From the IMG/VR virus record IMGVR_UViG_3300022719_000227, positions 1 through 42,641 of that record: 42,641 bases of DNA; one strand, 5' to 3'. Of this stretch, positions 1 through 42,467 are shown piece by piece (within the stretch, counting starts at the first letter, position 1; each line of letters begins with the position of its first letter). The notes below the pieces were generated by a model. It did no database searches. It had not been told where the DNA came from and saw only the letters and a list, made by a program, of their open reading frames with translations. The position numbers were made by a program, and so were the translations under genes. This stretch comes from a virus (lineage: Duplodnaviria; Caudoviricetes).

Positions 1-127
1 CCCAACCAGTGCATCGCGTCGGTGTGCTCGAGCGCGCCTTCGTCCAGTGCGGCGGCGACCCAGGGCTCCGGAGGACAGTCCTCGGGATCCGTCGCCACCG
101 GCAACCGGCCCCACCGGTGCAAATTGC
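1..127. repeat. Terminal overlap identical to 42515-42641 (circular contig; unit length about 42514 bp)
   Basis: Exact 127-nt duplication of the window start at the window end; an ORF reads in frame across the junction. Confidence 0.97.
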
Positions 128-422
128 GCCACAGCGACGCACCGCACCGCGAATGCGCCGCCACGCCGATCGAGCACACCAGCGCCGACGGCGGGCCGTC
201 ATGATAGACCGACAATACCAGGCATTTTCTCGATGCCCGCCCGGTCACCGAATACGGCCCAACTTCCGCGAAAGCCGAAAGCGAAACCGGCTCCGCCACA
301 TCGCCTGCGGCGACCCGCTCAATCAGCGGCTGCAGCGCTTGGATCGCGTCCTCAGAAACCTCGCCCGGGAGCGAATCCCGGGCGTGGCCTGTGGTGAGGG
401 TAATGTGGCGGATGTAGTTCAC
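1..422 (-). CDS. Hypothetical protein, 158 aa (MNYIRHITLTTGHARDSLPGEV...), 5' part; continues across the circular junction to 42460. Candidate anti-defence protein
   Basis: GTG at 422 overlaps the stop of the upstream gene (GTGA); open frame through position 1 into 42514-42460 ending ...CIAWAWLRAIGDE*; missed by the ORF track because it wraps. Confidence 0.8.
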   Translation of the reverse strand, partial: MNYIRHITLTTGHARDSLPGEVSEDAIQALQPLIERVAAGDVAEPVSLSAFAEVGPYSVTGRASRKCLVLSVYHDGPPSALVCSIGVAAHSRCGASLWRNLHRWGRLPVATDPEDCPPEPWVAAALDEGALEHTDAMHWL

Positions 423-1066
423 TTGATCTCGTCCTCGATGGCTTCGACGATGCCGGCCAGAGCTTCGCCGCGTATCCACTCGCCCGAGTACACCTCGCCG
501 TCGTTCATGTCTACGCAGGCTTCTTCGTCGCCGAGGTGTTCCTGGATCGCTCGATTGACGGCATCCTCGTCGTGGCCGGCAACCAGTGCTAGCATGCGTT
601 CAGCAGCGCTATTGCTGCGTACCCATGCTTCCGATTTTTCGTCGGCGGCCTCGTATTCGGTCGAGGTCAGCCCCTGCTCGCCTGTCTCTCTGTTTTGCGC
701 CCAGGAATCGGTGATTCTGTACTGACCACAGTGAGCGCAGACCTCGGTGACTACGACGCCGCCGCCTTTGCCCCATACGCCGGGGTTTTCTTTGAGGCCG
801 CCAAGGACCTCATACGGTGACTGCCAGTCGTGCCCGTCGTCGTGAGAGCAGTCGGGCTCTTGCGGTTCGATGGCGATGGTGTGAACGTTGCGTTCACCGA
901 TTTCCTCGCCGTCGGGACCGATCTGCTGGACATACACGGTGATCCAGGACGTGCTTTCGATTGGATTCCAATCGCCGTCGTCCACGTATTCTTGGGCGGC
1001 TTCGAGGGCCGTTTCAGCCCGTATTTCTATTTCGGCGTTGCCGTCATCGCAAAGGTAGCGATTCAT
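419..1066 (-). CDS. Highly acidic 215-aa protein with Cys/His Zn-like motif; candidate anti-CRISPR (AcrIC4-like C-terminus)
   Basis: AGGAG RBS and strong promoter upstream; about 49 D/E vs about 13 K/R by hand count; CSHDDGH...CAHC; first gene of an operon ending in a small HTH gene. Confidence 0.6.
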   Translation of the reverse strand: MNRYLCDDGNAEIEIRAETALEAAQEYVDDGDWNPIESTSWITVYVQQIGPDGEEIGERNVHTIAIEPQEPDCSHDDGHDWQSPYEVLGGLKENPGVWGKGGGVVVTEVCAHCGQYRITDSWAQNRETGEQGLTSTEYEAADEKSEAWVRSNSAAERMLALVAGHDEDAVNRAIQEHLGDEEACVDMNDGEVYSGEWIRGEALAGIVEAIEDEIK

Positions 1067-1103
1067 TTTGTATCTCCTGCCCCTGAACCCCCGAGGCGCG
1101 GGT

Positions 1104-1122
1104 CGTGATCTCTCTGATCACG
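1104..1122. promoter_or_regulatory. 7-bp inverted repeat CGTGATC-N5-GATCACG in the 5' UTR (hairpin or second operator)
   Basis: Perfect IR just downstream of the -10 box. Confidence 0.55.
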
Positions 1123-1127
1123 GTTAT

Positions 1128-1156
1128 ATATTACCCCAATGGGTCACCCATGTCAA
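1128..1156 (-). promoter_or_regulatory. Sigma70 promoter TTGACA-N17-TAATAT with palindromic operator ATGGGT-N-ACCCAT (1139-1151)
   Basis: Consensus -35 at 1156-1151, 17-bp spacer, -10 at 1133-1128; inverted repeat lies in the spacer. Confidence 0.85.
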
Positions 1157-1812
1157 GCCTTTTCGGGAAGATTTTCCCAGGCCGATTCCGGCGTCCCGAT
1201 TTCAGCGCATGGCACCGCGTCGTGCGGGTGCCAGTAAGGCGGGCGTATGCGCACCATCCTGCTGGCTTCCGGGTGCGGCAGGAAGCGATTCGAGCGGCCG
1301 TCCAGGAACAAGGACTGATCTTGGTCGGTGGGATCGATCTCGATCCCCGTAACCCGACCGTGACCGTGCGCCCGCTTTTTGCCCAGGTAGCGGATCTGCT
1401 TGAGGGCCTTGCGCAGGTCCTTGCGGTGCCCGACCGCGTAGCCGACCATGCGCCGGCACAGCAGCAGCGGCAGCGGCATCTGCCAATCCCGGTAGGTGCC
1501 CATTTGGGTGTTCGGTGCGCCGGTCGAAATCTCGCAGCGGCTCTGGCGGAACCGCTTGCGCCAGTACCAGACGGATTCACCCTGCGGGCCTTCCGGCAGG
1601 AGGGCCGATGCATGGTGGACCCGCCGGCCGCAAAACTCTGATTGCTTGATCGGCAGGCGCACGTCATCGGGCTGCATGGATCGGTTGATGTGACGGATGC
1701 CTTGCATCGGTGCGAGCACCCAGGCGACCAGCGAATCGATGTGGATGGGCTCGGCGGGGTCGAAATACACGCCGGTGCCGTCGAGGTGGAAGGTGATCTG
1801 GTAGCTGTTCAT
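1153..1812 (-). CDS. csf3: Type IV CRISPR-associated Csf3 (Cas5-family RAMP)
   Basis: PIHIDSLVAW, LPI...HASA, YWRKRF, G-rich loop YLGKKRAHGHGRV, C-terminal RPPYWHP; ATGA-coupled to the CysH-like gene. Confidence 0.88.
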   Translation of the reverse strand: MNSYQITFHLDGTGVYFDPAEPIHIDSLVAWVLAPMQGIRHINRSMQPDDVRLPIKQSEFCGRRVHHASALLPEGPQGESVWYWRKRFRQSRCEISTGAPNTQMGTYRDWQMPLPLLLCRRMVGYAVGHRKDLRKALKQIRYLGKKRAHGHGRVTGIEIDPTDQDQSLFLDGRSNRFLPHPEASRMVRIRPPYWHPHDAVPCAEIGTPESAWENLPEKA

Positions 1813-2555
1813 GAGAGCCTCGTTTCAGGAAACCGGTTGGTGATCCGGTGCGCGGCCGGGGCCGTGAAGCGCGCAAGCGCCATCGCGCCCTCTCGTGCCG
1901 CAGTCTTTGTCAGCCGGGCGGTGGTGCGCTGTGTGAGTCCGTATTTCTTGTAGATCGACAGCAGCGGCAGATCGTGGCGGACAATGTAGGCGGCCAGGTC
2001 GTCAATTCCCCAGCGCATGATCGGGCAGCCGCGGTATTTGCCATCCTTGTACCGGTAGATGGTCGGATGCGCATTGCGCTGCTTTACACCCTGGGCAAGC
2101 GTGATGCGGCGCGGGCGGCTTTCGTCCATCGCCAGGCCCCATAGCCATCCGTCCCACTCATCCCGCGGGCACATCTGTTGCAGGTCCTGATCGCCGGCAT
2201 CACGTGATTCTTTCCAGCTTGCGGCGCCGGCCATACGGTCGGTCTGGACGATGGTCAGGCGCGGGCGAAATCGCGAGCAGTATTCGTCGACCACGCGTTC
2301 GTAGTCGTGCAGGTCCCAGGTCTCTGAGCTGGCCAGGAAGTACATCGGGATGTCGGGCCGGATCCGCTGCGCCATGTGCGCGACGATGATCGACTGCTTG
2401 CCGAACGACAGCGACACGTAGCAGCGTGGCGCGATATCCAGGAGCGCCCGGATTCCTTCCAGCGCGTAGTCGACGGCGCGGCGGTGGCGGGGCGACTTGC
2501 CGTGCAGCCTGCCAATTGCCACCTGCTCGGAGAAATTGCTTACTTCCGCAGGCAC
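1809..2555 (-). CDS. cysH: CysH-like PAPS-reductase-family (adenine nucleotide alpha hydrolase) protein of type IV-B
   Basis: YVSLSFGKQS (PP-loop variant of SGGKDS), WGLAMDESRPRR, CPIMRWGIDDLAAYIVRHDLPLLSIY; GTG start at 2555 with GGAGGAG RBS. Confidence 0.85.
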   Translation of the reverse strand: MPAEVSNFSEQVAIGRLHGKSPRHRRAVDYALEGIRALLDIAPRCYVSLSFGKQSIIVAHMAQRIRPDIPMYFLASSETWDLHDYERVVDEYCSRFRPRLTIVQTDRMAGAASWKESRDAGDQDLQQMCPRDEWDGWLWGLAMDESRPRRITLAQGVKQRNAHPTIYRYKDGKYRGCPIMRWGIDDLAAYIVRHDLPLLSIYKKYGLTQRTTARLTKTAAREGAMALARFTAPAAHRITNRFPETRLS

Positions 2556-3235
2556 TTCAACTCCTCCGCGCTGGGCAGCAGGTAACACAGGAATTGGTAC
2601 AGCGCCGATTCCATCCGCGGCCGCGCCCACTGCACGAATTCCTGGGACGGCGCCATGCCGATCTTGGCGATCAGGTGCGGCTCGGGGTCGGCGGTCTCCA
2701 GTACCGGGCGGGGTATGCCCGCGTCTTGCCATGCACGCAGCGCCGACCACATCGATTCAAGCGCGGCGGTATCCGAGCAATCGACAATCCTCGTCTCCCA
2801 GAGCCACCGACCCGGGCCGGGCGCGTTGACCGGCGCCAGCATCGATCCGTGCTTTTTGTAGCTGGTCGTTGCGTACCCACTCCACGGCACTGACTCACCG
2901 CCGGCCAGCACGCGTTCGCGCACTGCGACCCGATCCAGCGGCGTGACGGCCTGGGCAGTGACCACCCAGGACGACATGCGTTCCGGCCGGTAATCCCGCT
3001 TCTTTCCGGGCGGTCGGTGGCCATACATCCACGCGCACCATGCGGCGACGCCAACCCGATCCGAGTCAGGCCGTGCCAGCAGGTCCCACTGGGTGAAGGT
3101 CGACCCGAGCAGGTGCTTGGCTGCAATCGTCTGGCATTCTCGCCCCGTGATCGCGCAGACGCCCGGGGCTTCCGGCTCTGGCAGCTGCGGCGCCTCGGCG
3201 CCGACGGCCGCTGCCCAAAGATCGACGCAGTGCAT
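2540..3235 (-). CDS. csf1: Type IV CRISPR-associated Csf1 (Cas8-like large subunit)
   Basis: N-terminal CAITG...C Zn-like remnant, YATTSYKKHG motif followed by PVN; position between csf2 and cysH/csf3. Confidence 0.75.
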   Translation of the reverse strand: MHCVDLWAAAVGAEAPQLPEPEAPGVCAITGRECQTIAAKHLLGSTFTQWDLLARPDSDRVGVAAWCAWMYGHRPPGKKRDYRPERMSSWVVTAQAVTPLDRVAVRERVLAGGESVPWSGYATTSYKKHGSMLAPVNAPGPGRWLWETRIVDCSDTAALESMWSALRAWQDAGIPRPVLETADPEPHLIAKIGMAPSQEFVQWARPRMESALYQFLCYLLPSAEELKCLRK

Positions 3236-4449
3236 CAGTCTTTACCGGCCAGCGCGCCGAGACGGGTGAGAAAGTCCAGGATGTCCCGCTTGCGGTCGGA
3301 CAGAAACGCGTCATACGGTCCCGGATCTTGCTCCGGCGCCATTTCGACCGCGATCTTGCCCAGGCCCCTGCGCGTCTCCGCGCCGAGTCGGCCGCGCTCC
3401 TTGAGCAGTGCAAGGCCCCTGGCGAGGCAGGCGCGCTCGATTTCGTTGGCGTGGTCATCGATGTCAATGCCTCCGCGCAGCACCGTGCCGGGCTTGAGTA
3501 TTTCCGTCTCGGCGATCATCTGTGACGTGCTGTCGTCCTCCTGGCGGCCCTCGAAGTCGTCCTTCCGGGTCAGGAATTCCCAGGCCATCAGGTCACCGGC
3601 GCGCTGGCTCCCGCCGCTCCATTCGACGCACTCCGGGCGGAGGTCGCCGACATAGATCCGGCCGGCGATCACGCGGTTGCCGATCGCCGTGCCGAGTGTG
3701 GACAGCAGCGGAATATGGTCCCGCAGTTCGCGCATGCCCTCGGTGCGAATCGCTCCAGACTTGCCGAGGTTGGCCTCGGCCTTGCTGGCCGCGCCCTCGA
3801 GTACCCCGCCGGAGTACAGAACATGGAACGCCCAGAGCTCCACGACCGGCTTGCTGCGGCTGGGCGTCAGGCCGAGCGCACGCAGGAAATGATCGGCGAG
3901 CAGGTCCCGGAGCTGGCCACGCAATGCGTTGCCGGCATACACCGGCAGATGGAGATGGCGCCCACTGGCGGTGATTACAGAGCGCCGCCGGAAAAGCGTG
4001 GCGTTTCCGGCCTTCTGATCGCCGCCGTGCGCCAGCCCGCTAAGGCACTCCACGGTCAGCGCGACGTCATAGGCTGGTGTATCGCCGACCGTAGACTGAT
4101 CTGACGAGTCGATCTCGGGGAGCTCAATCGCGTCGATCGCATCCGTGAGGTCGCCGTCATCCTTCATCGTCGCCAGCATGGCCACGAACTTCGGATGGGT
4201 GCGCATCCAGGCCAGGATCGCTTGCGCCTTCGGGCCGGTGGCTTCGCTCATGAATGCCGCCAGCCGTTTGCCGCCGACGTATTCGACCGATGCATCCATC
4301 GACTGCGCCAGCCGCTCGACCGCATCGACCAGCGTCGGCTGGCTGACCGCGCGGACAATCCGGTCTGCGACGTAGCCGCTGAAATTGCGCTTGGGCTCAT
4401 GCCCGGCGGAGCGGGCGACGGAACGTATCATTTCAATCGTTGCTTTCAT
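3235..4449 (-). CDS. csf2: Csf2 (Cas7-family RAMP) with about 123-aa N-terminal helical domain (probable Cas11 fusion)
   Basis: LSGLAHGG...GNATLFRR, LPVYAGNALRGQLRD, LYSGGVL, PLLSTLGTAIGNRVIAGRIYVGD, TRKDD, QMIAETEILKPGT, G-loop LGAETRRGLGKI; start 4449 after AGGAGG. Confidence 0.9.
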   Translation of the reverse strand: MKATIEMIRSVARSAGHEPKRNFSGYVADRIVRAVSQPTLVDAVERLAQSMDASVEYVGGKRLAAFMSEATGPKAQAILAWMRTHPKFVAMLATMKDDGDLTDAIDAIELPEIDSSDQSTVGDTPAYDVALTVECLSGLAHGGDQKAGNATLFRRRSVITASGRHLHLPVYAGNALRGQLRDLLADHFLRALGLTPSRSKPVVELWAFHVLYSGGVLEGAASKAEANLGKSGAIRTEGMRELRDHIPLLSTLGTAIGNRVIAGRIYVGDLRPECVEWSGGSQRAGDLMAWEFLTRKDDFEGRQEDDSTSQMIAETEILKPGTVLRGGIDIDDHANEIERACLARGLALLKERGRLGAETRRGLGKIAVEMAPEQDPGPYDAFLSDRKRDILDFLTRLGALAGKD

Positions 4450-4633
4450 CAGCTTTTCCTCCTGATCGAGGTCGCAGCGCGACCGGAATAAAAATCCACC
4501 GCTTGCAGCGGCACTTGGCCTCGAACCATCCGTCATCCCGGACGCGCAGCACGCGCGAGCGCACGACTTCGCCGTCCCAGATCCGGAAGCCGCATTCGCA
4601 TTGGATCGGTTCGCTGGGCCGGGGTTCGCTCAC
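4433..4633 (-). CDS. 66-aa zinc-ribbon protein, Mu Com-like
   Basis: IQCECG...EAKCRCKRW; GTGA-coupled to gpF and overlapping the csf2 start. Confidence 0.6.
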   Translation of the reverse strand: MSEPRPSEPIQCECGFRIWDGEVVRSRVLRVRDDGWFEAKCRCKRWIFIPVALRPRSGGKADESND

Positions 4634-5739
4634 GGCATGAACTCCTGCGGGATGTCGATGTTCTTGCGCTGGAGTTTGGGGACGATCTTCTTCCAGGGCG
4701 TCTCGATCTGGCGCGGGTCCAGCAGGCCCTGGCGCCAGGCCCAGCCCTTGGCCTTGCCGTCGAGCACGCCGTTTTGCTGCTCGGGTGTCAGGCCGTTTAT
4801 GAAGTCGGTCATCGATTCTCGGCCGGCGCGGTCTTCGTCGGTGATTTCGTCGACGAACACCGGCTCGAGGTAGCTAAACGTGTTGGGGTGCGCCGGCCAG
4901 GGGTGGTTGTCGATCGGGTACACGCCGGGGCCCAGGCCGTGGCGGTTGGCGCTGGCGTGCATGTCGCAGATGTCGAATTTCGGGTGCCGCGGGCTGAGGA
5001 CGAAGCGCACGGCGACCACGTCCGGGTGCTGCGCTGCAGCGCGAACCGATGCCTCCCCGAAGGCCCTATTGATTTCGGTTCGAAAAACCCGCTCGGCCTG
5101 GAAGAGCGGATTCATCTTTCCGGTCAGCAGTGCGTTGCCCGCGCGCTCCTGAATATTGCGAATCGCCGCCAGGCCTTGCTTGCTGAGCAGGTCAGCAGGC
5201 ACCGGCTGGCCGTTGGTCACCAAGCGGCGCGCCGCCTGACTGGCCGAATGGCCCTGCACAATGGCGTTCTGGACCGCCTCGCGAACAACCTCTCGCGCAC
5301 CTCGATCGATGCGCCACAGCCGGTCCGATAGCTGCAGGCCGTTGGCGTCGCGAAACTCCTCCAGAAACCGGACCGTCTCCTGGCGTAACCCGGCGATATC
5401 GAGCCCCACGTCTACCTGGCCCATCCACGGATTAACCGCAACCACCGCAGCCTCGTCGATCTGCCCGCTGAGGAATTCGGATGTCTCGCGATTTAGGCGC
5501 CGCAGCCGGTCATCAATGACCCGGCCAGCAGCATCTAGGTTCTCGATCGGGATCCTCCCCTCCGAATCTGCTAGGCGCTCCAGCGCGGCCTGGATCTCCT
5601 CGAGCGCCTGGCGATGCATCACCTCCAGCTCCCGGGCTGCCTCGGCCATTCGCCGTTCCAGCGCAGCCGCTGCCTGCTTTTGCCCCCGCCGAATCTGGCG
5701 GCCCCGTGCGTTGGTGGTGCCTAAGTTCTCGCCTGCCAT
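4630..5739 (-). CDS. Minor head morphogenesis protein (Mu gpF / SPP1 gp7-like)
   Basis: ERVFRTEINRA, CDMHA...GLGPGVYP...PWPAHPN; follows the portal gene. Confidence 0.85.
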   Translation of the reverse strand: MAGENLGTTNARGRQIRRGQKQAAAALERRMAEAARELEVMHRQALEEIQAALERLADSEGRIPIENLDAAGRVIDDRLRRLNRETSEFLSGQIDEAAVVAVNPWMGQVDVGLDIAGLRQETVRFLEEFRDANGLQLSDRLWRIDRGAREVVREAVQNAIVQGHSASQAARRLVTNGQPVPADLLSKQGLAAIRNIQERAGNALLTGKMNPLFQAERVFRTEINRAFGEASVRAAAQHPDVVAVRFVLSPRHPKFDICDMHASANRHGLGPGVYPIDNHPWPAHPNTFSYLEPVFVDEITDEDRAGRESMTDFINGLTPEQQNGVLDGKAKGWAWRQGLLDPRQIETPWKKIVPKLQRKNIDIPQEFMP

Positions 5740-5883
5740 TTATCGCACCTCGTCAGGCATCGGGCGGCGGAATCCAGAAAAGCGCATACCTGCGGCCTGC
5801 GCGGCCTGTCGCTCCACCGCCCGCGCCGCCTCGCGCTGCGCGCGCCGGATGATCCGGCCGATGCTGTTTGAGTCGTCAGGCAT
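5740..5883 (-). CDS. Hypothetical protein, 47 aa
   Basis: ATG 5883 overlaps the upstream ORF; stop abuts the gpF start. Confidence 0.5.
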   Translation of the reverse strand: MPDDSNSIGRIIRRAQREAARAVERQAAQAAGMRFSGFRRPMPDEVR

Positions 5884-6064
5884 CGTCTCGATCGATTGGT
5901 GATTTCCATCTGCGCACCGGCAAGTACCGGCGCAACATGTCCCAAACAAACCAACGCATGGGGTGCTCCCGGCAGTGCTTCAATGTGCGTAGCTGCCGGT
6001 TGACTGCATGGAAATCCGGCAGTCGACCGCACCACTCGGTAAGGTTCATTTCTCTCGTGTCCAT
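5876..6064 (-). CDS. Hypothetical protein, 62 aa
   Basis: Fills the gap after portal; GAAGG RBS. Confidence 0.55.
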   Translation of the reverse strand: MDTREMNLTEWCGRLPDFHAVNRQLRTLKHCREHPMRWFVWDMLRRYLPVRRWKSPIDRDDA

Positions 6065-6087
6065 CGCCTTCTCGGCGGCTGCGGCGT

Positions 6088-7473
6088 TTAATCAGTGCTG
6101 ATCGTCGTCCCGCTGTCGCCCTTGCGCTCATTGCCCGGCGTGATGCTGACCCGGGGTGCGCCAGACGGCGCCGGGCGGCCGGGGTCGTTTCCGGGATACG
6201 GGTCGTCGTCGTCAGCTTCGGCCTCGCGCTGCTTGCGCACGGCGGCCGGGTCCAGCCCGGCGGATTCCCAGACCATGTCGGCCGGCACGCCCAGCGCCTG
6301 GTACTTGAGCGCCCGGTCGGCGCGCTGGTTTAGCGTTTCGGCGTGGCGCTCGGCGAATTCGATGCCGAATTCCCACTGATTCGGGTCGATGCCCTTGAGC
6401 AGCAGGTCGAGCCGGAAGCCGAATTCGTAGGCCTGGCCGGCGAGATCCTGGAGGCTGTCGAGCTCGTCGTACCAGTCGCGCTTGAGGTCTTCGAGGATGT
6501 CGCGGTTGAGCTCGTCGGCGTAGCCGAACAGGCCCTTCGGCGCCGGCGCGCCGGCGAAGAACGAATCCAGCAGGTGGGCGACGTCGGCAATCTGGTCGAG
6601 GTTGGCGTCGCCGTTAATGGGCTCGACCTTGGCCTTCTCGGTGTTGGTGTAGTAGTCGCGCCAGTTGCCCTCGGCCTGGTCCTGCTCGATGTCGGTGCGG
6701 TAGTTCTCGAGCTGCTCTTCCTCGTAGCCCGGCAGGTTGTGGTGCATGCGCTGCGGGGCGCGGGTGCGGCGGCGGATGACGAGGTCCTGTTCGGTCATCC
6801 GGAGTTTGTCCCACACGGTGCGCGTGGCGTCGAGGTAGGGCCTGCCGAGCGAGCCGTGGTCGTCGTAGTTGTCCGGGGTCAGCCGGGCCATGCTGAGCTG
6901 GTAGAGCGCGAACTCGGCCAGTTCTTCCCCGGTCATGGGGTTGACCTGTTTCCAGGCGCGCGCGGGGTCGATGAACCGGCCGGTGGTGTCGACCTGCGGG
7001 ATGAGCGTTTCAGTGGGCATGCGCACCGCACCCACCACCTCGGGCCGCTCGGTGCTCACGACCCATTGCAGCGGCAGGTTGCCTTCCATCATGAAGCCGC
7101 GCAGGTCGCTTTCGAGCTTCTCGCGCCGGTGCAGGTGCAGGCGGCGCTGGAACTGCTTCCAGTGGTTAATGAGCCGGGTGTTGCCGCTGGCGGTCTTGAG
7201 CCGCAGCCCGCCCTTGGCGGCCGAGCGCGCGGAGCGGACGTGGATCTTCTTCACCCGCGGGTCGACGCGGTCCATGTACCGGATGCGCAGGATGCTGCCG
7301 CGCAGCTCGAAGTCGACCAGGTCCATCGACGCGTACATGCGCCGGGCCCAGTTCTCGGCGTTGACGCGGCTGCCGCCTTCGCTGCCGGGCTGCGATTCGC
7401 CCGGCGCGCGTTCGTTGCGCGCGGCGGCCGGCGGTCGGCGCCGGAAGCGGGCCAGGAAATCTCGTAGTGCCAT
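6088..7473 (-). CDS. Portal protein
   Basis: 461 aa directly after terminase; SLGRPYLDA motif, phage-like codon usage. Confidence 0.85.
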   Translation of the reverse strand: MALRDFLARFRRRPPAAARNERAPGESQPGSEGGSRVNAENWARRMYASMDLVDFELRGSILRIRYMDRVDPRVKKIHVRSARSAAKGGLRLKTASGNTRLINHWKQFQRRLHLHRREKLESDLRGFMMEGNLPLQWVVSTERPEVVGAVRMPTETLIPQVDTTGRFIDPARAWKQVNPMTGEELAEFALYQLSMARLTPDNYDDHGSLGRPYLDATRTVWDKLRMTEQDLVIRRRTRAPQRMHHNLPGYEEEQLENYRTDIEQDQAEGNWRDYYTNTEKAKVEPINGDANLDQIADVAHLLDSFFAGAPAPKGLFGYADELNRDILEDLKRDWYDELDSLQDLAGQAYEFGFRLDLLLKGIDPNQWEFGIEFAERHAETLNQRADRALKYQALGVPADMVWESAGLDPAAVRKQREAEADDDDPYPGNDPGRPAPSGAPRVSITPGNERKGDSGTTISTD

Positions 7474-9059
7474 CAGATTGCTGCCTCCAGCAGTGCAGCC
7501 CGGCTGTGCGAGCTGGTGAGGATGACGGGGTCGGGCTCGGCGCTGTTGCCGCGCGTGGCCAGCGACCAGACCGAGGCCATGGCCGCGTCGAACGCGTCGT
7601 CGCCGAGCGTCGGGCGCACCATTTCGTACTTGCTGTAGCTCTTGGTGGTCGGCACGGCGCGGATGTTCGGGAGCTGGCGCACCAGCGTGCGATGGCCGAA
7701 CGTGGCCAGGTCGATCAGGCTTTCATCAGCGTCGTCGATGTAGGGCAGTACGGCGCGGCCTTCGTGGAACGCGCGGCGCAGCGCCTGGGCCATCTGGTGC
7801 TTGGTCATGCCCTCGAACTGGATCGGCGAGAAGGCCCATTCCGGCCAGGTGCTGGGCGTGCTCTCGCCGTCGGCCACGGCGCGGCGGTCGATGTCGGTGA
7901 GGTTGTTGGCGAATAGATGGTCGTTGACCATCGTGATCACGCCGATGCCGTAGGCGTCGCCCAGGGCGTAGTCGGGCCGGAAATAGCGCCACAGCGCGAC
8001 GATGTCCCGGGCCACGGCGGCGTCGTCTGCGCTGGACGGCCAGGTGATGACGGTCGGGAAGAACGTCCACTCGCCGATCTGCTCGGTCACGACCAGGCAG
8101 TGCTTCGAGCTCTCGGGCTTTTCGCCGTGGCCGCCGGCGTCGTAGCCGAAGCCGATCAGCCCGCGCTTGCGGTAGGTCTCGTCGGGCATGGGCTCGACCA
8201 CGTCCAGCCCCGAGCGCAGGCCGATCTGCATCGCCCGGCGAACGAACCGCTCCCAGATGAGGTTCTTGGCGCTGACGTTCTTGCACAGCAGCTGGCGCAG
8301 GTATTCGTCGGGCGAGAGCTCGCGGCGCATCTTGTCGATGAACTCTTCATTCAGGATGCCCAGCTCCACGCCCAGGTGACAGTCGACCGTCGGGAGCGTG
8401 CGGTAGTTGCCGCCGGCGACGATCTCGCTGAGCGTGTCGGCGCCCTTGTAGACGCCGGTGATGTGGATGCGCGGTTCGTTGGTGGCCGAGGTTGAGGCGC
8501 CGAGCCGGCGCGTGGCGCCCATCATCAGCAGGAACCGGCCGAACAGCCGGTCGCGCGGCATGTCGTCGACCTCCTCGAGACTGGCCACCGTCAGGTCGCC
8601 GCCGTCGACCTGGCTGTAGATGCCGTAGGCGCGAGCGAGCGAGTTGTTAGAGAACTGGTAGTAGGTGTCGGCCAACTGCTGCCGGCCGGACTTGTAGGCC
8701 AAAAACGCCTTCAGGATCGAGCTGCGGCGGATGGCCTCCAGGTGGTAGCCGAGGTTGTTGAGGCTCTGCGCCTCGCGCGGCGCGACGATGCCAAGCTCCT
8801 GGTCGCGGTTCGTGGCCAGGTACTTGAGCAGCCACATTTCCTTGACCGCGGTCTTGCCCGTGCGCCGGCAGCTGAAATCGACCGTGTAGCGGTGCTCGTC
8901 CATCTCGATGCACTTGAGCACCTGCATCGGGTCGAGCGTGACGTTGTGGACGTGCTTGTGCCAGAGCGCGTGATCGTCTGCAAAGCGCAGGATCTCGCGC
9001 CCGGCCACGCTCTGCGCGCGGATCCGCTGGGCCTGACTGACGCGCTTTTCAATCGGCAT
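7473..9059 (-). CDS. terL: Terminase large subunit
   Basis: Walker A CRRTGKT, Walker B SLEEVDD, nuclease acidic motifs GYDAGG and DDAFDA. Confidence 0.9.
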   Translation of the reverse strand: MPIEKRVSQAQRIRAQSVAGREILRFADDHALWHKHVHNVTLDPMQVLKCIEMDEHRYTVDFSCRRTGKTAVKEMWLLKYLATNRDQELGIVAPREAQSLNNLGYHLEAIRRSSILKAFLAYKSGRQQLADTYYQFSNNSLARAYGIYSQVDGGDLTVASLEEVDDMPRDRLFGRFLLMMGATRRLGASTSATNEPRIHITGVYKGADTLSEIVAGGNYRTLPTVDCHLGVELGILNEEFIDKMRRELSPDEYLRQLLCKNVSAKNLIWERFVRRAMQIGLRSGLDVVEPMPDETYRKRGLIGFGYDAGGHGEKPESSKHCLVVTEQIGEWTFFPTVITWPSSADDAAVARDIVALWRYFRPDYALGDAYGIGVITMVNDHLFANNLTDIDRRAVADGESTPSTWPEWAFSPIQFEGMTKHQMAQALRRAFHEGRAVLPYIDDADESLIDLATFGHRTLVRQLPNIRAVPTTKSYSKYEMVRPTLGDDAFDAAMASVWSLATRGNSAEPDPVILTSSHSRAALLEAAI

Positions 9060-9990
9060 TGGATTGGTGCTCGATCGCGACTGGGTCGCGCTTGGAGCGC
9101 TCGGCGGCGCGTTCGATCAGTGCGCTCATATTTTCCAGCGCCTTGGCCTGCGTGCGCTGGTATTCGAGCAGCGTCTCGCGGTCGGACTTCTCGTTTTCCA
9201 GGTGGCCGGCGATGTCGTCACGGTCCTGCTGCGCGGCCACCGTCATGCCCGAATCGGCCAGCGTCATGCCGGTGGACTTGATGATCTCGCTCATCCGCTT
9301 GAGCAGCGGGTTTTCGCGCACCTCCGTCAGCAGAATCTCTTCACCCGTTGTTGGGTGGGGCCCGCACGCCAAGTGAAAACCGCCGCCCTTGTCGTAGTAC
9401 CACTGCGGCGTTTCGATCTCCACCCCGCGCGCGATGATCGACTGCATGATCATGTCCAGGATCGCGCACACAGCCGCGTGCATCCGGGCGCGCAGGCCCT
9501 GCAGCATCGTCGGGTCCTGTGAGTCGAAGGCGATGTCGTGCTGCAGGAACAGCTCGGTCTTGCGCTGGCAAGCGATATTGCCGTCCAGACCACACGAATC
9601 AAAATACGGGCAGCCGTCGCAGTCCGGATACCGCCCCGGCTTGGCCGGGAAATACCGCGCGGTGTTGGCGTAGGCGCCGTGCTGCAACGCGTTGAACCGA
9701 GTGCGCCGCGCCTCTTCCGGTGTCGGGTGCCCCTCGAGGTTCTTCGCCGCATTCGCCAGCCCCTCCGGCGTCCGCGGTCCCGTCGCGTTCGCCCAGGCCT
9801 TCAGCAGCGAGGCCTGAACCCGGTCCTGGTGCGCGTCCGCTCCGCAAGCCGGACACTCGGCGAAATAGTCCCAGGGGTGGTGCGTCTTGTCCGGCACGTC
9901 CACCACCCGATCGGGCGCCCCCTCCCACCGGTGATCACACTCCGGGCAATGGAATTTCACCGCGTCCATCTTGTCGCGCCGCTTACCCAT
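9049..9990 (-). CDS. Probable terminase small subunit with Zn-finger motifs
   Basis: CPEC/CPAC, TGPRTPEG...NALQHG motif, CDGC..C..C; directly upstream of and overlapping terL. Confidence 0.7.
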   Translation of the reverse strand: MGKRRDKMDAVKFHCPECDHRWEGAPDRVVDVPDKTHHPWDYFAECPACGADAHQDRVQASLLKAWANATGPRTPEGLANAAKNLEGHPTPEEARRTRFNALQHGAYANTARYFPAKPGRYPDCDGCPYFDSCGLDGNIACQRKTELFLQHDIAFDSQDPTMLQGLRARMHAAVCAILDMIMQSIIARGVEIETPQWYYDKGGGFHLACGPHPTTGEEILLTEVRENPLLKRMSEIIKSTGMTLADSGMTVAAQQDRDDIAGHLENEKSDRETLLEYQRTQAKALENMSALIERAAERSKRDPVAIEHQSNAD

Positions 9991-9996
9991 GCCCGC

Positions 9997-10032
9997 GTGA
10001 TACCAGCCGGCAGCGCGTCAAACCATGGAAAA
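9997..10032 (-). promoter_or_regulatory. Putative late promoter TTTTCCAT-N22-TATCAC (possibly leaderless terS mRNA)
   Basis: Same octamer and 22-nt spacing to a TA-starting hexamer as upstream of the capsid operon (42168-42203). Confidence 0.55.
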
Positions 10033-10038
10033 CCCCGC

Positions 10039-11643
10039 TCACGCCGCCCGGCACCACCGAACCGGCAACGGCTCAACCGCGGTTCGCAGCAAGCGCGACC
10101 CGGGGAGCCAATTTTTCGTACTGCGAACCGTATCCGCCCCGACCAGCCGGTCGGGGCGGTACTGTATCTGCACTTCGTCCTCGAGTACGTCGACCCGATC
10201 GATGAGCTGGGCCAAGAAAGCGCGCGTTTTCTTGACGTCGGTACGATCCCGCATTCTCTCGGCCAGGAACTCGCGCAGCTCGTCCAGCTGCTCCGGCGTG
10301 ATGCTGAGCGCGGGCGGTTGTTCTGAGTCGATTTCCGAGATTTTCTGCTCGAGCTTTTCTATCTCGGCTTTGTTGGCCCGCAGGCGCTGGGTCAGGTCGG
10401 CCATATTGGGCGCTTCCCGACCGTGGAGCTCGAGCACGTCGAAGATCTTCGATTGGCGGTTCTCGACCTGGACCAGCTGACGCTGGGCGGTCTGCATTCG
10501 CTTTTTTCGGTCCTTGGCCCAGTCGCCGGCCGCTGCGTGGAGCTTCTGGTAGACCTCCATCAGGTTTTCGTGGCTGAAAACCCGGCGCGTGACGACTTCG
10601 AGCAGCCAGTCGTCCAGGTCGCGGGCCGGGATTCGCCGGCCAGGGCATTCGGATCCGCGGCGCGCCTGCTGGCACTCGTAGTAGCTGTAGATCTTGCCGC
10701 CGCGCCCGGTGCCAGTCTTGATCTGCATACGCGCGCCGCAGCTGCAGCGCGTCAATCCCGTGAACAGGTAGGTGCTGTGCGGTGATCCGCTGCCCCGCCC
10801 CGGTCGGTCCTGGTCAATCATGGCCTGCACAGCCTCCCAGTCGTCAAGCTCGACAATTGCCGGATGCGCCGGCACCCGCACCCATTGATCCTGCGGGCGG
10901 CGGCGACCGGTGCGCCGGTCCTTCTTGTTGAACACCATTCTGCCGACTAGCGCCTCGGACCGGAGCGTGAAAAGCACGTTGGTCTGGTTCCATCGGCGGC
11001 CACGGTTCGTGATGCCTTCATCGTTCAGCAAATCCGCAATGCTCTTGGCGCCGATGCCCGACAAGCGAAGCGCGATCATCCGTTGTGCAACTTCCGCTTC
11101 GGCCTGGATCGGCTCGAGTCGTTTCCGTTTGGGCTCGTCCGGTACCGGCACGGTCTGGAAACCAAATGGAATGCCGCCGCCGGTGTAGTAACCCTGCGCG
11201 GCCAGCCGCATCATCGATCGCTTGGTGTCAGACGCGATCTGTCGACTGGTCAGCTCGTCGAAGATCTGCATCACCTGCTCGAGCACCCAGCCGCTGTTGT
11301 CGCGCCGGTCGATCGGCATCGAGATGTAGACCAGCTCTACACCGGCGTGCTCGAGCCGCTTCTTGTAGATGATGGCGTCGTGGGCACTGCGCGAGAATCG
11401 CGACGTCGACCAGGTGATGAAATAGGCCGGCTGCGTCAGCTCGCTGTACTCGATCGCGTCCTGGAATGCCGGGCGCTGGTCCGTCGAGCCTGAGAGGCCT
11501 TCGTCGGTGAATACACGGTCGACGGTGGCGTCGAGCTCCTCGGCCTTCTTCCGGCAGCGGTCGACCTGCCCCTCGATCGGCAGCTCGTCTTGCGCCTGCC
11601 GGCTGGTCGAAACCCGCGCGTAAATGACCGCCTTTTTATTCAT
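10039..11643 (-). CDS. Large serine recombinase (integrase), about 534 aa
   Basis: IYARVST catalytic Ser, SRFSR, GGGIPFGF, recombinase domain, Zn ribbon RCSCG...YYEC...C, coiled coil. Confidence 0.95.
   Translation of the reverse strand: MNKKAVIYARVSTSRQAQDELPIEGQVDRCRKKAEELDATVDRVFTDEGLSGSTDQRPAFQDAIEYSELTQPAYFITWSTSRFSRSAHDAIIYKKRLEHAGVELVYISMPIDRRDNSGWVLEQVMQIFDELTSRQIASDTKRSMMRLAAQGYYTGGGIPFGFQTVPVPDEPKRKRLEPIQAEAEVAQRMIALRLSGIGAKSIADLLNDEGITNRGRRWNQTNVLFTLRSEALVGRMVFNKKDRRTGRRRPQDQWVRVPAHPAIVELDDWEAVQAMIDQDRPGRGSGSPHSTYLFTGLTRCSCGARMQIKTGTGRGGKIYSYYECQQARRGSECPGRRIPARDLDDWLLEVVTRRVFSHENLMEVYQKLHAAAGDWAKDRKKRMQTAQRQLVQVENRQSKIFDVLELHGREAPNMADLTQRLRANKAEIEKLEQKISEIDSEQPPALSITPEQLDELREFLAERMRDRTDVKKTRAFLAQLIDRVDVLEDEVQIQYRPDRLVGADTVRSTKNWLPGSRLLRTAVEPLPVRWCRAA
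10080..10130. other. Putative attP site inside the 3' end of the serine integrase gene
   Basis: Perfect 10-bp IR CGGTTCGCAG/CTGCGAACCG spanning 51 bp around the core CCCGGGGAGCCA, which resembles a tRNA 3' end. Confidence 0.75.
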
Positions 11644-11914
11644 TCCGTGGCCAAGGAAGTGTCGGAAATTCGCCAACCATTTCAGGATGCTGAATCGCTA
11701 CCGCTCGCAAAACCGCCTGTTCTTCCGGTGACCGCAGCGTGACCACGGGATCTTGATCTCCGGCATATGACTCATAACGGCTGAAGATCTCAAGCAGAAC
11801 CCTGGCGGGCCCTTCAGATAACGTCAGTTCCCAGACTACCTCGCCCGACTCAACTTCCTGACGCATATCCTGCTTTCGCAGAATCCCATCAAAGACGCTG
11901 CTGCGTTTTCTCAT
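11636..11914 (-). CDS. Hypothetical protein, 92 aa, lower GC
   Basis: ATGA-coupled to the Mor-like gene and overlapping the integrase start. Confidence 0.65.
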   Translation of the reverse strand: MRKRSSVFDGILRKQDMRQEVESGEVVWELTLSEGPARVLLEIFSRYESYAGDQDPVVTLRSPEEQAVLRAVAIQHPEMVGEFPTLPWPRNE

Positions 11915-12378
11915 TCGGCGCCTCTCATCAGCTTGCGAATGTGCCCCTCGGTCAGATCATAGCCGAGCCGCCGGCGCAGTTCCTGTCGAATCTCGGCCGC
12001 GGTCCACTCTTGGGCGGCCAGCGTGGCGATGTACCGATTTCTCTGGTAGCGCTGCCAGGTGGAGATCGCCGGGATGTGCACACGGCCGCAGTCGTCCTGA
12101 ACGCTGTCGTCCTGGCTGAGGATCTGCCACGTGGCCAGGAACGCGTCGACGCCGATCGCCGAGGCCACGCGCAGCCAGTGCCGGCCCAGCCCCAGCTCGG
12201 CCAGTTCGGCCAGCCGCGGATCCCCGAACCGAGATCCTTGCGAGGTGCAGATATCCAGGTACCCACCTCCCCCCTGAGACCGGGCGCCGGCGCTGTGCCG
12301 ACCCCCCACCCTATGGCCGGCCGCCGCCGTGGCCTGCATTCCTCGATCCGAGCTGCGCTTTTGCCGCCCGGTGGTCAT
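11911..12378 (-). CDS. Mor/C-like late transcription activator (start uncertain)
   Basis: RVASAIGVDAFLATWQIL...VHIPAI...QRNRYI...HTH-like C-terminus, matching the Mu Mor/C layout. Confidence 0.6.
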   Translation of the reverse strand: MTTGRQKRSSDRGMQATAAAGHRVGGRHSAGARSQGGGGYLDICTSQGSRFGDPRLAELAELGLGRHWLRVASAIGVDAFLATWQILSQDDSVQDDCGRVHIPAISTWQRYQRNRYIATLAAQEWTAAEIRQELRRRLGYDLTEGHIRKLMRGAE

Positions 12379-12628: not shown

Positions 12629-13672
12629 TCAGCTTTGTCCTCGTCGTCGGTAGATCTCTCGAGCGCTGTCCAGGGCCGGGGCGCGGATCCGTTTGAGCGG
12701 GCTGGCCTTGTCGCTGGTCTGCCGGAGCTTGCGCAGTGCGAGGTGGGTGTAGACCTCGGTGCTCTTGATGTCCTCGTGACCCATGAGGGCCTTGCGCTGC
12801 CAGGGGTCGATGTCGTGCTCGGCCAGCTCGGTGCCGAACAGGTGGCGGAAAGCGTGCGGGTGGCAGTGCTCGGGCGGCACGCCGGCGCGCTTGCCGTACT
12901 TCTTGATCAGGGCCGTCACGGCGCCTGGACGCAGGCGACGATGCTCGCCCCGGTAGTCGTGCTCGCCGATGCTGCGGTTCCTGGTGGAGACCCACAGCAC
13001 GCGCTCGCCGGTCTTGGTGGCGCGATCGATCTGCTCCAGCTCGGGGTGCGCGAGATAGGCCTGGATGAGCACCTGAGCCTCGGGCGGGGCCGGGACGATG
13101 CGCTCCCGTGCGCCCTTCTCCTTGACCTTGACGTCCAGCCAGCGGCGACCGCCCTCGGTGGTCCAGAGAAGGGAGCTGTCGTCCATGCCGCACAGCCCAC
13201 TGACGCGGATGCCGGTGCCGATGAGCGTGGCCAGGATGGCGGCGTCTCGCATTCCGAGGAACGTGCCCAGGTCGGGCGCCATCAGCAGCTTCTCGGCCGT
13301 CTCGATGCTGGCCGGCACCGGCAGCCGGCGGCCGATCTCCGGATAAACGAGGCCCGCGGCCGGGTTACCCAGGCCGGCGCGCTTGCTGGCCCAGCGGTAG
13401 AAGCTCTTGAGCGCAGCGACGATCGGGGAGCGGCTGCGGGGGCTCAAGCCGCGGCTGTGGGCGTACAGGCCGGCGAACAGCTCGAGGTCGTCCGTGGTGG
13501 CCTGCTCCGGGCCCGGTGCGCTCGGGCGCAGCTTCGGATCCTCCGGCGGCTGGGCGTACCACTGGCCGAGCGCCATCAAGTGGCCGCCGTACTTCTCCAC
13601 AGTGGCCGGCGACCGTCCCGAGGCGTGCTGCAGCCAGTTTTGGTACTTGGCGACCAGCTCCGGCCAGGTCAT
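12629..13672 (-). CDS. XerC-like tyrosine recombinase
   Basis: N-terminal core-binding domain (RSPATVEKY, ALKSFYRW), GTGIRVSGL, HAFRH, MGHEDIKSTEVY. Confidence 0.92.
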   Translation of the reverse strand: MTWPELVAKYQNWLQHASGRSPATVEKYGGHLMALGQWYAQPPEDPKLRPSAPGPEQATTDDLELFAGLYAHSRGLSPRSRSPIVAALKSFYRWASKRAGLGNPAAGLVYPEIGRRLPVPASIETAEKLLMAPDLGTFLGMRDAAILATLIGTGIRVSGLCGMDDSSLLWTTEGGRRWLDVKVKEKGARERIVPAPPEAQVLIQAYLAHPELEQIDRATKTGERVLWVSTRNRSIGEHDYRGEHRRLRPGAVTALIKKYGKRAGVPPEHCHPHAFRHLFGTELAEHDIDPWQRKALMGHEDIKSTEVYTHLALRKLRQTSDKASPLKRIRAPALDSAREIYRRRGQS

Positions 13673-13699
13673 CGAGACGCCCTCCAGCCGGCCGATTCG

Positions 13700-14110
13700 T
13701 CAGGGGGGGAGGGGGAGTCAGAAATGTAGGGGGTCGTTTTGGGGGCGATTTTGGGATAAGTGCCTGATTTCCCTACGTATTGAGGCCCTCGGTTTTTGCA
13801 GGATGCCGAAAAAAAATGTAGGAGCAAAAATTGACCAGCACCTCCGTTTGTAGGGCTGTTCTTCCTTTTTGCAGGGCCTTCTCTCTTTTTTGTAGGGGTA
13901 AAAGAGAGAAAGAGAGGGGATAAAGACGCCGACCGAGGCGGATTTTTGCATGGCGGTATCAATAACTTAGCTGAGTTATCCACAGCCGGCCCTCGGTTTT
14001 TTGCGGTTTGCCCCCGCCATCTTGAAAAAATGCGGCGATTTCGGGCGTTTTTGGCGCGTTTTCGGCTCGCGATTCGGGCGCTCGCCCTACATTTTTCGGC
14101 CGAAATCGGC
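13700..14110. other. Putative replication origin
   Basis: AT/homopolymer-rich non-coding gap after the primase; six direct TG(T/C)AGG repeats (13725, 13797, 13817, 13849, 13870, 13891) plus one inverted (14086); 11-bp IR 13879-13910; perfect DnaA box TTATCCACA 13976-13984. Confidence 0.7.
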
Positions 14111-14129
14111 TGAATTCCGCGGAAAACGG

Positions 14130-19368: not shown

Positions 19369-19622
19369 GACGCCGTCTTCCGCTTCAGTTGCCGAAGCCG
19401 GTTGCGACCTTCTTCTTTACAGATACAGCCGAAATATGGCTGTTGTTGATCGCCGGGAGGGTCCTCCATGGGGCGGCAAATCTCTATTAACTCGGGCTCT
19501 TCCTTCTCGATCTCCCGGAGCCGCCAGGCCAGTGCGTAGGAGTAGATATCCGCGCCATTCTCAACCGCGGAGAGCGCCGTCAGCAGGCCGATTTCATTGG
19601 GGGCGGATGTAGATGTACTCAC
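19365..19622 (-). CDS. Hypothetical protein, 85 aa, lower GC
   Basis: GTGA-coupled to the recombinase stop, GGAGG RBS. Confidence 0.65.
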   Translation of the reverse strand: MSTSTSAPNEIGLLTALSAVENGADIYSYALAWRLREIEKEEPELIEICRPMEDPPGDQQQPYFGCICKEEGRNRLRQLKRKTAS

Positions 19623-42167: not shown

Positions 42168-42203
42168 ACGCTACGGGCCTCGCGCGCTCCGATCTATGGA
42201 AAA
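42168..42203 (-). promoter_or_regulatory. Putative late promoter TTTTCCAT-N22-TAGCGT
   Basis: Matches the element upstream of terS. Confidence 0.55.
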
Positions 42204-42215
42204 TCAGGCGCGCAC

Positions 42216-42243
42216 AAAAAAGCCCCGGCGGGCCGGGGCTTTT
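42216..42243 (-). terminator. Rho-independent (bidirectional) terminator after the HTH gene
   Basis: AAAAAAGCCCCGG-CGGG-CCGGGGCTTTT. Confidence 0.9.
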
Positions 42244-42263: not shown

Positions 42264-42467
42264 CTAGCCCGTCAACCTCTTATTCGCGCACCACCAGCTG
42301 GAAGCCGGCATGCTCCGCTCGCCGCGCTCCCATTTCCGCCAGGCGCTGAGCGATGCGAAGGCGGCATCCGCGCAGACCTGCTGCGCTTCCATAACGCTCA
42401 GCTTGCGGCGACGCTGCAGGCGGGCGCGCAGGTCGCGGACCTGCTGTGGTTCGGGGTGCTTACTCAT
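42264..42467 (-). CDS. Small HTH protein, 67 aa (Aca-like)
   Basis: PQQVRDLR...QQVCADAAFASLSAWRKWERGERSMP; last gene of the operon driven from 1128-1156. Confidence 0.75.
   Translation of the reverse strand: MSKHPEPQQVRDLRARLQRRRKLSVMEAQQVCADAAFASLSAWRKWERGERSMPASSWWCANKRLTG

Follow-up and report, generated by a model that had tools for sequence, protein, structure and literature searches.

The locus described here raises the question of what a CRISPR-Cas-like module without an array or a nuclease does in a phage genome. The module, a 3.3-kb cassette of four genes (csf2, csf1, a cysH-like gene, and csf3), lies on the minus strand of the virus record IMGVR_UViG_3300022719_000227, and the whole 42,641-nucleotide (nt) stretch of this record is referred to as the window. 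By gene content the module is a type IV-B system, and the function of type IV-B systems and of their CysH partner is stated as an open question in reviews (PMC8175902, PMC7038947, PMC13676074, PMC11656645). Our preferred reading, to which we assign a probability of about 0.42, is that the nuclease-free IV-B-like core on this mobile cassette would bind RNA and serve as a scaffold by which the CysH-like enzyme reaches the phage's own DNA during lytic growth. What the sequences show directly is the gene content of the module, a fusion within Csf2, the mobility of the cassette, purifying selection, swaps of the enzyme, a modest bias toward the terminase, and the absence of array and nuclease genes.

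Gene content of the module

The record represents a tailed phage of ~42.5 kb, has a 127-nt direct repeat at its ends, and is classed as 100% complete. Pfam and PHROGs matches identified integrases, CII, a repressor, a primase, and head, tail, and lysis genes. All four module genes (Table 1) are intact. Csf2 matched its PADLOC model with an E value of 1.7e-47, Csf1 and Csf3 matched theirs as well, and the gene between csf1 and csf3 matched Pfam PAPS_reduct above the model cut-off. The csf2 start was placed at the ATG at 4449, behind an AGGAGG site, rather than at 4536, and the resulting protein equals database entry P0001. For the cysH-like gene, the GTG at 2555 is the most probable start, in place of 2750. 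Each gene overlaps the next, and the overlaps extend into the genes upstream (gpF/Zn-ribbon, GTGA; Zn-ribbon/csf2, 17 nt; csf2/csf1, TGATG; csf1/cysH-like, 16 nt; cysH-like/csf3, ATGA). The gene calls, junctions, and profile matches agree with an initial annotation, made from the sequence alone, which had named the same four genes in the same overlapping order. When the module was compared with the copy in another phage contig (L001; loci are referred to by such numbers below), the ratio of nonsynonymous to synonymous substitution rates was 0.09 for csf2, 0.05 for the cysH-like gene, and 0.05 to 0.24 over all four genes, indicating purifying selection.

No array-like repeat family and no two-repeat mini-array were found in the window. 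The only repeat, at 34.4 to 34.7 kb, was a tandem repeat with an 81-nt period (34404-34760) in the tail/lysis region, and it was not CRISPR-like. Rfam gave no credible match in the window; its four matches all had E values of 0.5 to 0.9, far under the gathering scores. Models for Cas1 and DinG-type Helicase_C_2 and two models for Cas6 had 0 matches genome-wide, and the same models were positive in control genomes. Cas2 had no match among the 61 open reading frames (ORFs) scanned and was not searched genome-wide. The claim of the initial annotation that the complete genome has no CRISPR array, cas6, cas1, or dinG was therefore borne out, with cas2 covered through the 61 scanned ORFs. A hidden array, mini-array, or known RNA was rejected on the basis of the repeat and Rfam scans, and no CRISPR-like mini-arrays were seen in the family loci scanned.

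VIPR elements are GGY-based short repeats. This candidate was rejected because no period-5 repeats were present in any locus. Long GGC/GGT-NNN repeats, which encode Gly-X, were found 1 to 3 kb upstream of the module in L001 (1-290), L050 (6518-8220), and L054 (1-342). Their period of 6 equals the Cas7 footprint, yet the repeats read as coding, and they are not a required part of the module because the window does not carry them. Cas6-type genes were seen at two loci. In L043, a Cas6e-type gene (13640-14152; Pfam CRISPR_assoc, 1e-24) directly follows cysH, and no array was seen in the available DNA. In L052, a weakly matching Cas6-like gene (3813-4787) precedes a divergent csf1-csf2-csf3-cysH operon, with a Mom-like gene upstream and no array seen.

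The window module is type IV-B by gene content: Csf1, Csf2, Csf3, and a fused Cas11 are accompanied by an adjacent cysH-like gene with a PP-loop and no catalytic Cys, and an array, Cas6, and a helicase are absent (definition in PMC7038947, PMC8175902, and PMC11656645). The DinG helicase, Cas6/Csf5, and array of type IV-A are missing. The Cas10-like large subunit with an HD nuclease that marks type IV-C is missing as well; the large subunit here is the 231-amino-acid (aa) Csf1, for which a profile search returned no solved relative. The gene content and the missing array and nuclease genes support the earlier description of a type IV-B-like, array-less, non-immune architecture.

A Cas11-like domain fused to Csf2

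The Cas11 small subunit, which has no gene of its own in the module, appears to be fused to the N terminus of Csf2, and the evidence for this fusion is moderate. In the AlphaFold model of Csf2 (predicted local distance difference test [pLDDT], 87), residues 2 to 106 form helices only. Among PDB entries, a profile of 48 Csf2 N-terminal domains scored best with the type IV-C small subunit, Cas11c (E value, 2.7e-4), and comparisons of the Cas11 part with IV-C Cas11 gave E values of 0.0045 and 2.7e-4. An hhalign comparison of the fused domain with the presumed Cas11 of phage SPI1 (Orf41) gave no match, and PADLOC gave no Cas11 match. The subtype placement of Csf2 differed between methods. Specifically, the top Foldseek match was the type IV-B Csf2 (7jhy; E value, 2.5e-10), whereas the sequence profile placed IV-C Cas7 (1.7e-14) ahead of IV-B (4.5e-12). 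A VIA comparison with 7jhy gave a Z of 16.8 and a root mean square deviation of 2.9 over 210 residues, with the Z values of IV-A1, IV-B, and IV-A3 tied within 1. Csf2 also has a nearly invariant Asp, D144, in a loop that aligns with Csm3 profiles.

Among 8000 candidates scored, 443 proteins of similar length matched the fused family at an E value of ≤0.001, and the best 120 of these aligned over 88 to 100% of the query. Of the family loci, 50 were viral, 12 came from genomes, and 80 came from metagenomes. Both domains were on one ORF in 99 of 104 clusters, a share that is biased because the query itself was fused. One locus (L023, 11209-14221) has two csf3 copies in a single operon, directly before the tape-measure gene.

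The CysH-like protein and the enzymes that replace it

In 33 aligned CysH-like sequences, S50, G52, K53, S55, G140, E145, R149, P178, Y202, and R210 were invariant. No Cys was invariant or nearly invariant in this alignment, and the last 60 residues of the window protein are free of Cys. The conserved C-terminal catalytic cysteine of a true 3'-phosphoadenosine-5'-phosphosulfate reductase is thus missing. The model of the protein (pLDDT, 88) has a fold that is common to CysH, FAD synthase, TtuA, and CysD and is also shared with tRNA thiolases and TilS. The Atlas clusters nearest to the protein were 73 to 96% viral. A CasCysH with a PP-loop and without a conserved Cys has been described, and AMPylation was proposed for it (PMC8175902).

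Almost every complete csf operon had an enzyme gene in this slot, within the operon or directly next to it. Clusters were defined at 90% Csf2 identity, and all three core genes were required. In the 75 clusters that had csf2, csf1, and csf3, the enzyme was CysH alone in 47, a radical S-adenosylmethionine (SAM) enzyme without CysH in 10, IbrA (with or without IbrB) without a short CysH in 5, and both PP-loop types in 9. The remaining 4 clusters had none of the three: two carried a DUF4417-like gene (E value, ~1e-3, under the cut-off), one carried an unannotated 310-aa ORF, and one was truncated by the contig end. The radical SAM partner matched Pfam Radical_SAM and, weakly, a B12-binding model; IbrA consisted of PAPS_reduct and DUF3440, and IbrB of ParB_N. 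Csf2 and radical SAM proteins are both mentioned in PMC4158269 and PMC9723712, which deal with them separately.

A quick tree was made from 48 rows of Csf2, with L055 excluded and no shuffle control shown. On it, the radical SAM state, present in 9 rows, required 6 changes, and the IbrAB state, present in 10 rows, required 7. Judged by this tree, enzyme swaps recur, and the enzyme states are scattered across it. The modification role that the initial annotation had suggested gains independent support because partner enzymes are swapped in the slot.

Some of the genes that are inserted with the modules or lie next to them belong, by their family matches, to types linked with DNA modification. 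Genes for N6/N4 methyltransferases are inside the csf operon in L024 and L041, ParB N-terminal proteins and GNAT acetyltransferases are encoded within or adjacent to the insertions, a TET-associated glycosyltransferase gene is right after the module in L020, and the Mom-like gene of L052 is near a divergent csf copy. In L012, an ORF between terL and the module (3414-4718) joins a ParB-like N terminus, assigned through a cluster with L011:2756, to a PAPS_reduct domain.

Mobility and insertion site

The module copy in L001 was 95.8% identical over 3399 columns. The match begins exactly at the csf2 ATG and ends at 1074, and similarity resumes from 414 to 42276 across the genome junction. The L001 copy is located after HNH and other small non-structural genes and before a tRNA-like end and convergent tail genes, away from head genes. 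Three further samples of the same study (X2 to X4, which are one study and not independent habitats) carry the L001-type variant, and the match to the X2 contig stops at 4449. Among 44 viral loci that share the window's terminase (51 to 83% identical), none carried csf genes. The Zn-ribbon gene follows gpF in 23 of these 44 csf-free relatives. In the 23 relatives that reach the capsid gene, the gap was <700 bp in 12 and held other cargo (>1.2 kb between gpF and capsid) in 11. In L105, an N6/N4 DNA methyltransferase gene directly follows the Zn-ribbon gene, in the same slot as the cassette. A tblastx comparison gave noise outside the cassette. By these sequence comparisons, the module is a mobile cassette, and its position in the window reflects recent insertion into a hotspot for cargo.

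The G+C content at third codon positions was 0.79 to 0.82 in the module versus 0.89 to 0.94 in core genes. This is only a weak sign of recent arrival because gpF (0.81) and the serine integrase (0.82) were equally low. Clear direct repeats flanked the module in 3 of 40 family loci, with scores of 112, 52, and 50 versus a cross-pair null maximum of 33. Direct repeats of ~30 to 105 nt were observed on both sides of the module in L012, L015, and L019. In L005, L006, L008, L046, and L054, integron attC-like hairpins were seen by eye 150 to 250 nt on either side, and these may explain promoterless mobility. The 42-kb window genome itself has three recombinases (10039-11676, 12629-13672, and 19619-20218), of which one is a large serine integrase and the other two are tyrosine recombinases.

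The initial annotation had coupled the module to Zn-ribbon, gpF, portal, and terminase genes upstream. The overlaps agree with this coupling; the Zn-ribbon gene was rejected as a gene of the module because it sits after gpF in csf-free relatives, as part of the head operon. Mu com-mom is a late modification operon in which the Com zinc-ribbon regulator precedes the modification gene. Unlike in com-mom, the window Zn-ribbon had no Com match. It encodes a CxC...CxC ribbon directly upstream of the module, but 0 of 19 family members matched Pfam Mu-like_Com at an E value of 0.5, and a role as a Com regulator was not supported.

Transcription of the module

A scan of positions 1 to 12000 for sigma70-consensus promoters found 1, versus 1.5 expected in shuffles. 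It lies directly after csf3 and faces away from the module. The module itself and the stretch immediately upstream of it gave no match, in keeping with the initial annotation, which had found no internal promoter. The sigma70 promoter after csf3 would drive the downstream cargo genes and not the csf genes. The promoter with its palindrome, a variable ORF, a conserved ORF, a helix-turn-helix (HTH) gene, and a terminator (1156 to 42216 over the junction) resemble an anti-CRISPR and anti-CRISPR-associated (acr-aca) unit that travels with the cassette. Comparable strong promoters were seen by eye after the module in L006, L008, L011, L016, L031, L037, and L049.

A 10-mer was present only at 10032 and 42203, before terS and before the protease-capsid gene; 0.04 copies were expected, and 0 of 300 shuffles had two. 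In L081, the closest cassette-free relative, the same motif directly follows the Zn-ribbon stop. In 15 of 17 relatives, some of which are near-identical, a genome-specific motif was common to the regions before terS and the protease-capsid gene. Across L065 to L106, each relative had its own duplicated promoter-like motif at both sites, suggesting a fast-diverging late activator and site. The motif shared by the two regions points to two late promoters. The csf genes of the window are most likely transcribed from the late terS unit because the scan gave no promoter for the module itself, which sits between the two motif copies. In the simplest reading, the cassette would have landed within the end of the Zn-ribbon gene, and its csf genes would be read through from the terS promoter, while the separate sigma70 promoter would drive three cargo genes up to the terminator.

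The module had been described as wired into the late packaging operon. Late transcription is likely in this genome, and that part of the description stands. A conserved design in this lineage was rejected: csf genes were in 0 of the 44 terminase relatives, the same cassette is elsewhere in L001, in a non-structural arm, and the X2 match ends at 4449.

Position relative to the terminase across the family

Dereplicated loci were classified by hand. The module was in head/packaging operons in 12 loci (that is, between terS, terL, portal, gpF, or capsid; L044 and L013 are less certain), in a tail operon in 1, ≤5 kb upstream of terS/terL in 13, and elsewhere in 15; 9 loci were too short. The module was ≤5 kb from terL in 24 of 35 contigs versus 15.3 expected under uniform placement (P = 5e-4), and in 15 of 26 contigs of ≥20 kb versus 7.9 expected (P = 0.002). 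In the case of the IbrAB-only loci, 2 of 11 were within 5 kb of terL versus 2.3 expected; terL was present in 11 of 14 such loci. The test omitted L001, L201, L208, and L220, whose records gave no terL, and L008, whose terL, seen 0.5 kb upstream, escaped the search of the whole record. Short contigs without terL and hand-picked duplicates were also outside the test. The bias toward the terminase is real but modest, at ~1.6- to 1.9-fold, and several unrelated terminase families are involved. On the quick Csf2 tree, the head-operon state required 12 changes for 12 rows, indicating that the head-operon positions are separate insertions. An unfused IV-B operon that was found via IbrB (L205, L206) is also just before terS-terL-portal.

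Proposed function and alternatives

In the mechanism that we propose, late cotranscription of the module would supply a core that forms a filament on RNA. The Cas11-Csf2 fusion would polymerize on RNA, by analogy with the complex of Mycobacterium sp. JS623, and Csf1 and Csf3 would cap the filament. The enzyme in the slot would be recruited to this core and would modify nucleic acid; in the case of the CysH-like enzyme, the PP-loop suggests adenylation chemistry, in which the enzyme may act via an adenylated intermediate (as proposed in PMC8175902). The phage would benefit in that its modified DNA would be protected against host restriction or CRISPR. The scaffold RNA would probably be phage transcripts or other non-CRISPR RNA because no array or conserved RNA was found. 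Phage DNA is the favored substrate because the companions that could be named are DNA-modification genes and published modification loci share the company of ParB and terminase genes (PMC13229309).

Several points weigh against delivery of an enzyme to phage DNA. Rfam and repeat scans found no guide or scaffold RNA. The function of IV-B was still open as of 2026, and no IV-B system is known to have an experimentally shown activity or substrate (PMC13676074). Methyltransferase and ParB genes are frequent in regions of this type whether or not csf genes are present. IbrA and the radical SAM family have no established substrate, and the targets of PP-loop enzymes also include tRNA, small molecules, and proteins. 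A weak search for Csf1 fused to an enzyme found none among 7999 long candidates. The late-promoter motif of the window was chosen by visual inspection, and an automatic comparison of the upstream regions did not reach significance in the case of the window (P = 0.225). Among contigs of ≥30 kb, the terminase bias was not significant (6 of 16 versus 3.6 expected; P = 0.13). The uniform null also ignores the tolerance of this zone for all cargo (11 of 23 relatives had >1.2 kb of other DNA from gpF to capsid), and many copies of the module sit elsewhere, including the near-identical L001 copy and those in non-structural arms.

The choice of substrate is where a rival reading comes closest. It is unlikely, in our estimate, that RNA or protein is the target to which the scaffold brings the enzyme, with modification of defense proteins, host tRNA, or other RNA during infection, or that a signaling nucleotide is made. 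Class 1 backbones and the JS623 complex, which resembles type III-A (PMC7937560), bind RNA; the CysH-like fold is common to tRNA thiolases, TilS, and FAD synthase; the nearly invariant D144 of Csf2 is in a Csm3-aligned loop; and copies are also found in non-structural arms. The co-travelling genes that could be named are, however, mostly of the DNA-modification type, and the terminase bias better fits events on progeny DNA. A further reading takes the position as incidental and cysH as an auxiliary gene of ordinary sulfur metabolism next to the remains of a cas cluster. In its favor, the insertion site is a general cargo hotspot, and viral cysH genes are often read as sulfate-assimilation genes (PMC9723712). 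This reading seems very improbable given the missing catalytic Cys, the purifying selection on all four genes, the overlapping junctions, and the replacement of CysH in place by unrelated enzymes.

The near-universal enzyme slot also bears on two readings in which CRISPR RNAs (crRNAs) are central. Both the crRNA sponge and the hijacking of host crRNAs had been raised in the initial annotation, and both fail to explain an enzyme gene inside the operon in nearly every complete copy. We consider it improbable that the complex is an anti-CRISPR sponge for host crRNAs or other small RNAs, with the enzyme secondary, as proposed in PMC7038947, PMC8175902, and 10.1101/2023.08.02.551345. Late expression would fall after the need for an anti-CRISPR, and the JS623 complex bound few crRNAs. 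A Cas11 fused to Csf2 would give a self-contained filament, and the end of the cassette, where a strong promoter is followed by two small ORFs and by an HTH gene that is weakly Aca2-like, has an acr-aca-like layout, but the promoter would drive the cargo and not the csf genes. Guided silencing of competing phages or plasmids, as in type IV-A, with host crRNAs or an undetected small RNA, is quite improbable. All backbone subunits are present, the two family loci with a Cas6-type gene (weak in L052) and the mini-array of the Fuxivirus IV-B locus (PMC10848311) would suit it, and yet this complete genome has no array, mini-array, Cas6, or helicase, no mini-array was found in the family loci scanned, and IV-B is negatively correlated with other CRISPR systems (PMC7038947).

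Delivery of an enzyme to phage DNA could extend beyond this genome. The widespread phage IV-B lineage would then be an RNA-scaffolded, possibly RNA-addressed, platform that modifies phage DNA before packaging, with a CysH-like adenylase, IbrA-IbrB, a B12-type radical SAM enzyme, or a DUF4417-like protein as interchangeable heads. We hold this wider claim to be doubtful; if true, it would give type IV-B its missing function and reveal new DNA chemistry. The same three-gene core with at least four different enzymes in one slot, in small phages, offers a comparative route to the question of IV-B and CysH function, and the 3.3-kb cassette with its single-chain Cas11-Cas7 subunit lends itself to expression. 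Should the core direct these enzymes to nucleic acid, it would be a non-cutting CRISPR derivative for chemical modification and possibly a programmable writer. Modules of this kind may also account for many of the viral cysH genes now assigned to sulfur metabolism.

Features of the locus

Table 1. Positions of the module genes, their neighbors, and putative signals in the window
Feature	Position	Strand	Remarks
csf2 with fused Cas11-like domain	3235..4449	-	404 aa; ~1-110 all-helical, small-subunit-like; ~125-400 Cas7/Csf2 RAMP
csf1 (Cas8-like large subunit)	2540..3235	-	231 aa; PADLOC 1.1e-15; family alignment of 48
CysH-like PP-loop nucleotide-binding enzyme	1809..2555	-	248 aa; PAPS_reduct 3.2e-8; without conserved catalytic cysteine
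csf3 (Cas5-like)	1153..1812	-	219 aa; PADLOC 7.5e-31; PDB Csf3 profile match 5e-16
Zn-ribbon gene of the host phage head operon	4433..4633	-	outside the module; 3' end now extends into csf2
gpF-like head morphogenesis gene	5739-4630	-	PHROGs
portal gene	7473-6088	-	PHROGs
terL	9059-7473	-	PHROGs
probable terS	9990-9049	-	label from position only
Putative late-promoter motif before terS	10023..10032	-	predicted driver of terS-terL-portal-gpF-Zn-ribbon, csf by read-through
Putative late-promoter motif before protease-capsid gene	42194..42203	-	one of only two exact genome matches
sigma70-consensus promoter TTGACA-17-TAATAT	1156-1128	-	overlaps csf3 stop; short palindrome in spacer; hexamers kept in L001
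Variable cargo ORF	419..1066	-	215 aa, no family; unrelated ORF in its place in L001
ORF of unassigned family across genome junction	1..422 to stop near 42460	-	common to L001
Small HTH protein, last cassette gene	42264..42467	-	weak HTH_31 and Aca2/YdiL-like matches, under cut-off; L001 similarity stops at 42276
Terminator-like hairpin with T-tract closing the cassette	42216..42243	-	by eye

Comparison with known systems

IV-B loci in prophages and viruses, an array-less IV-B locus in a complete 41-kb virus, and the idea that CysH modifies nucleic acid are already published. The Cas11-Csf2 fusion, the replacement of CysH by radical SAM or IbrAB, the head-operon insertion, and the terminase linkage were not found for IV-B in the literature searched, which did not extend to supplements; such variants may already appear in locus tables, either those of PMC7038947 or those of subscription papers. 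The literature used for comparison also includes PMC11437467, PMC10910872, and PMC8730458.

Like the IV-B locus of Mycobacterium sp. JS623 (PDB 7JHY; PMC7937560), the window module has Csf1 to Csf3, a small helical subunit, and a cysH-like partner, and both are without an array, Cas6, a helicase, and adaptation genes. The JS623 complex binds heterogeneous 55- to 60-nt RNA, with few crRNAs bound, and resembles the RNA-targeting III-A complexes (PMC7937560). In contrast to JS623, the Cas11-like domain of the window is fused to Csf2 and is IV-C-like by profile, and the gene order is csf2-csf1-cysH-csf3. The JS623 locus is on a megaplasmid, whereas the window module is in a small tailed phage with relatives that swap CysH for radical SAM or IbrA-IbrB.

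The viral IV-B loci of Methanoperedens virus Mp_virus_41kb, the Fuxiviridae, and phage SPI1 resemble the window in that a nuclease-free csf operon with cysH is carried by a complete virus of similar size. The Methanoperedens virus locus (10.1101/2023.08.02.551345) is also array-less, but it has a separate small-subunit gene; SPI1 differs in a 137-aa ORF before csf2, and the Fuxivirus locus (PMC10848311) differs in its mini-array. Head-operon insertion or enzyme replacement is not described for these loci in the parts of the literature searched. In Skermania phage SPI1 (L003, Orf40-44), an isolated phage with a cultured host, csf1, a small ORF, csf2, csf3, and cysH form an operon that is unannotated, and this phage would be immediately usable for experimental work. 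Type IV-C (PDB 11fs; PMC13676074) gave the best sequence-profile matches for the Cas7 part (1.7e-14) and the Cas11 part, and it differs from the window in that it has a Cas10-like HD large subunit and an array and is chromosomal and not viral.

Among DNA-modification systems, a likeness is seen to the published phage post-replicative T-dioxygenase (5mYOX-ParB) loci, in which ParB co-occurs in 27% and terminase in 19.2% and ParB activates one class (PMC13229309). Like these loci, the csf modules combine a modifying enzyme with ParB-like or glycosyltransferase neighbors, often near the terminase. The CysH-like protein is a PP-loop enzyme like DndC (PMC10853773), but it has no Fe-S or Cys dyad. 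Unlike the phage DNA-modification loci, the window module has a Cas7/Cas5/Cas8-like scaffold, which is without a known counterpart there.

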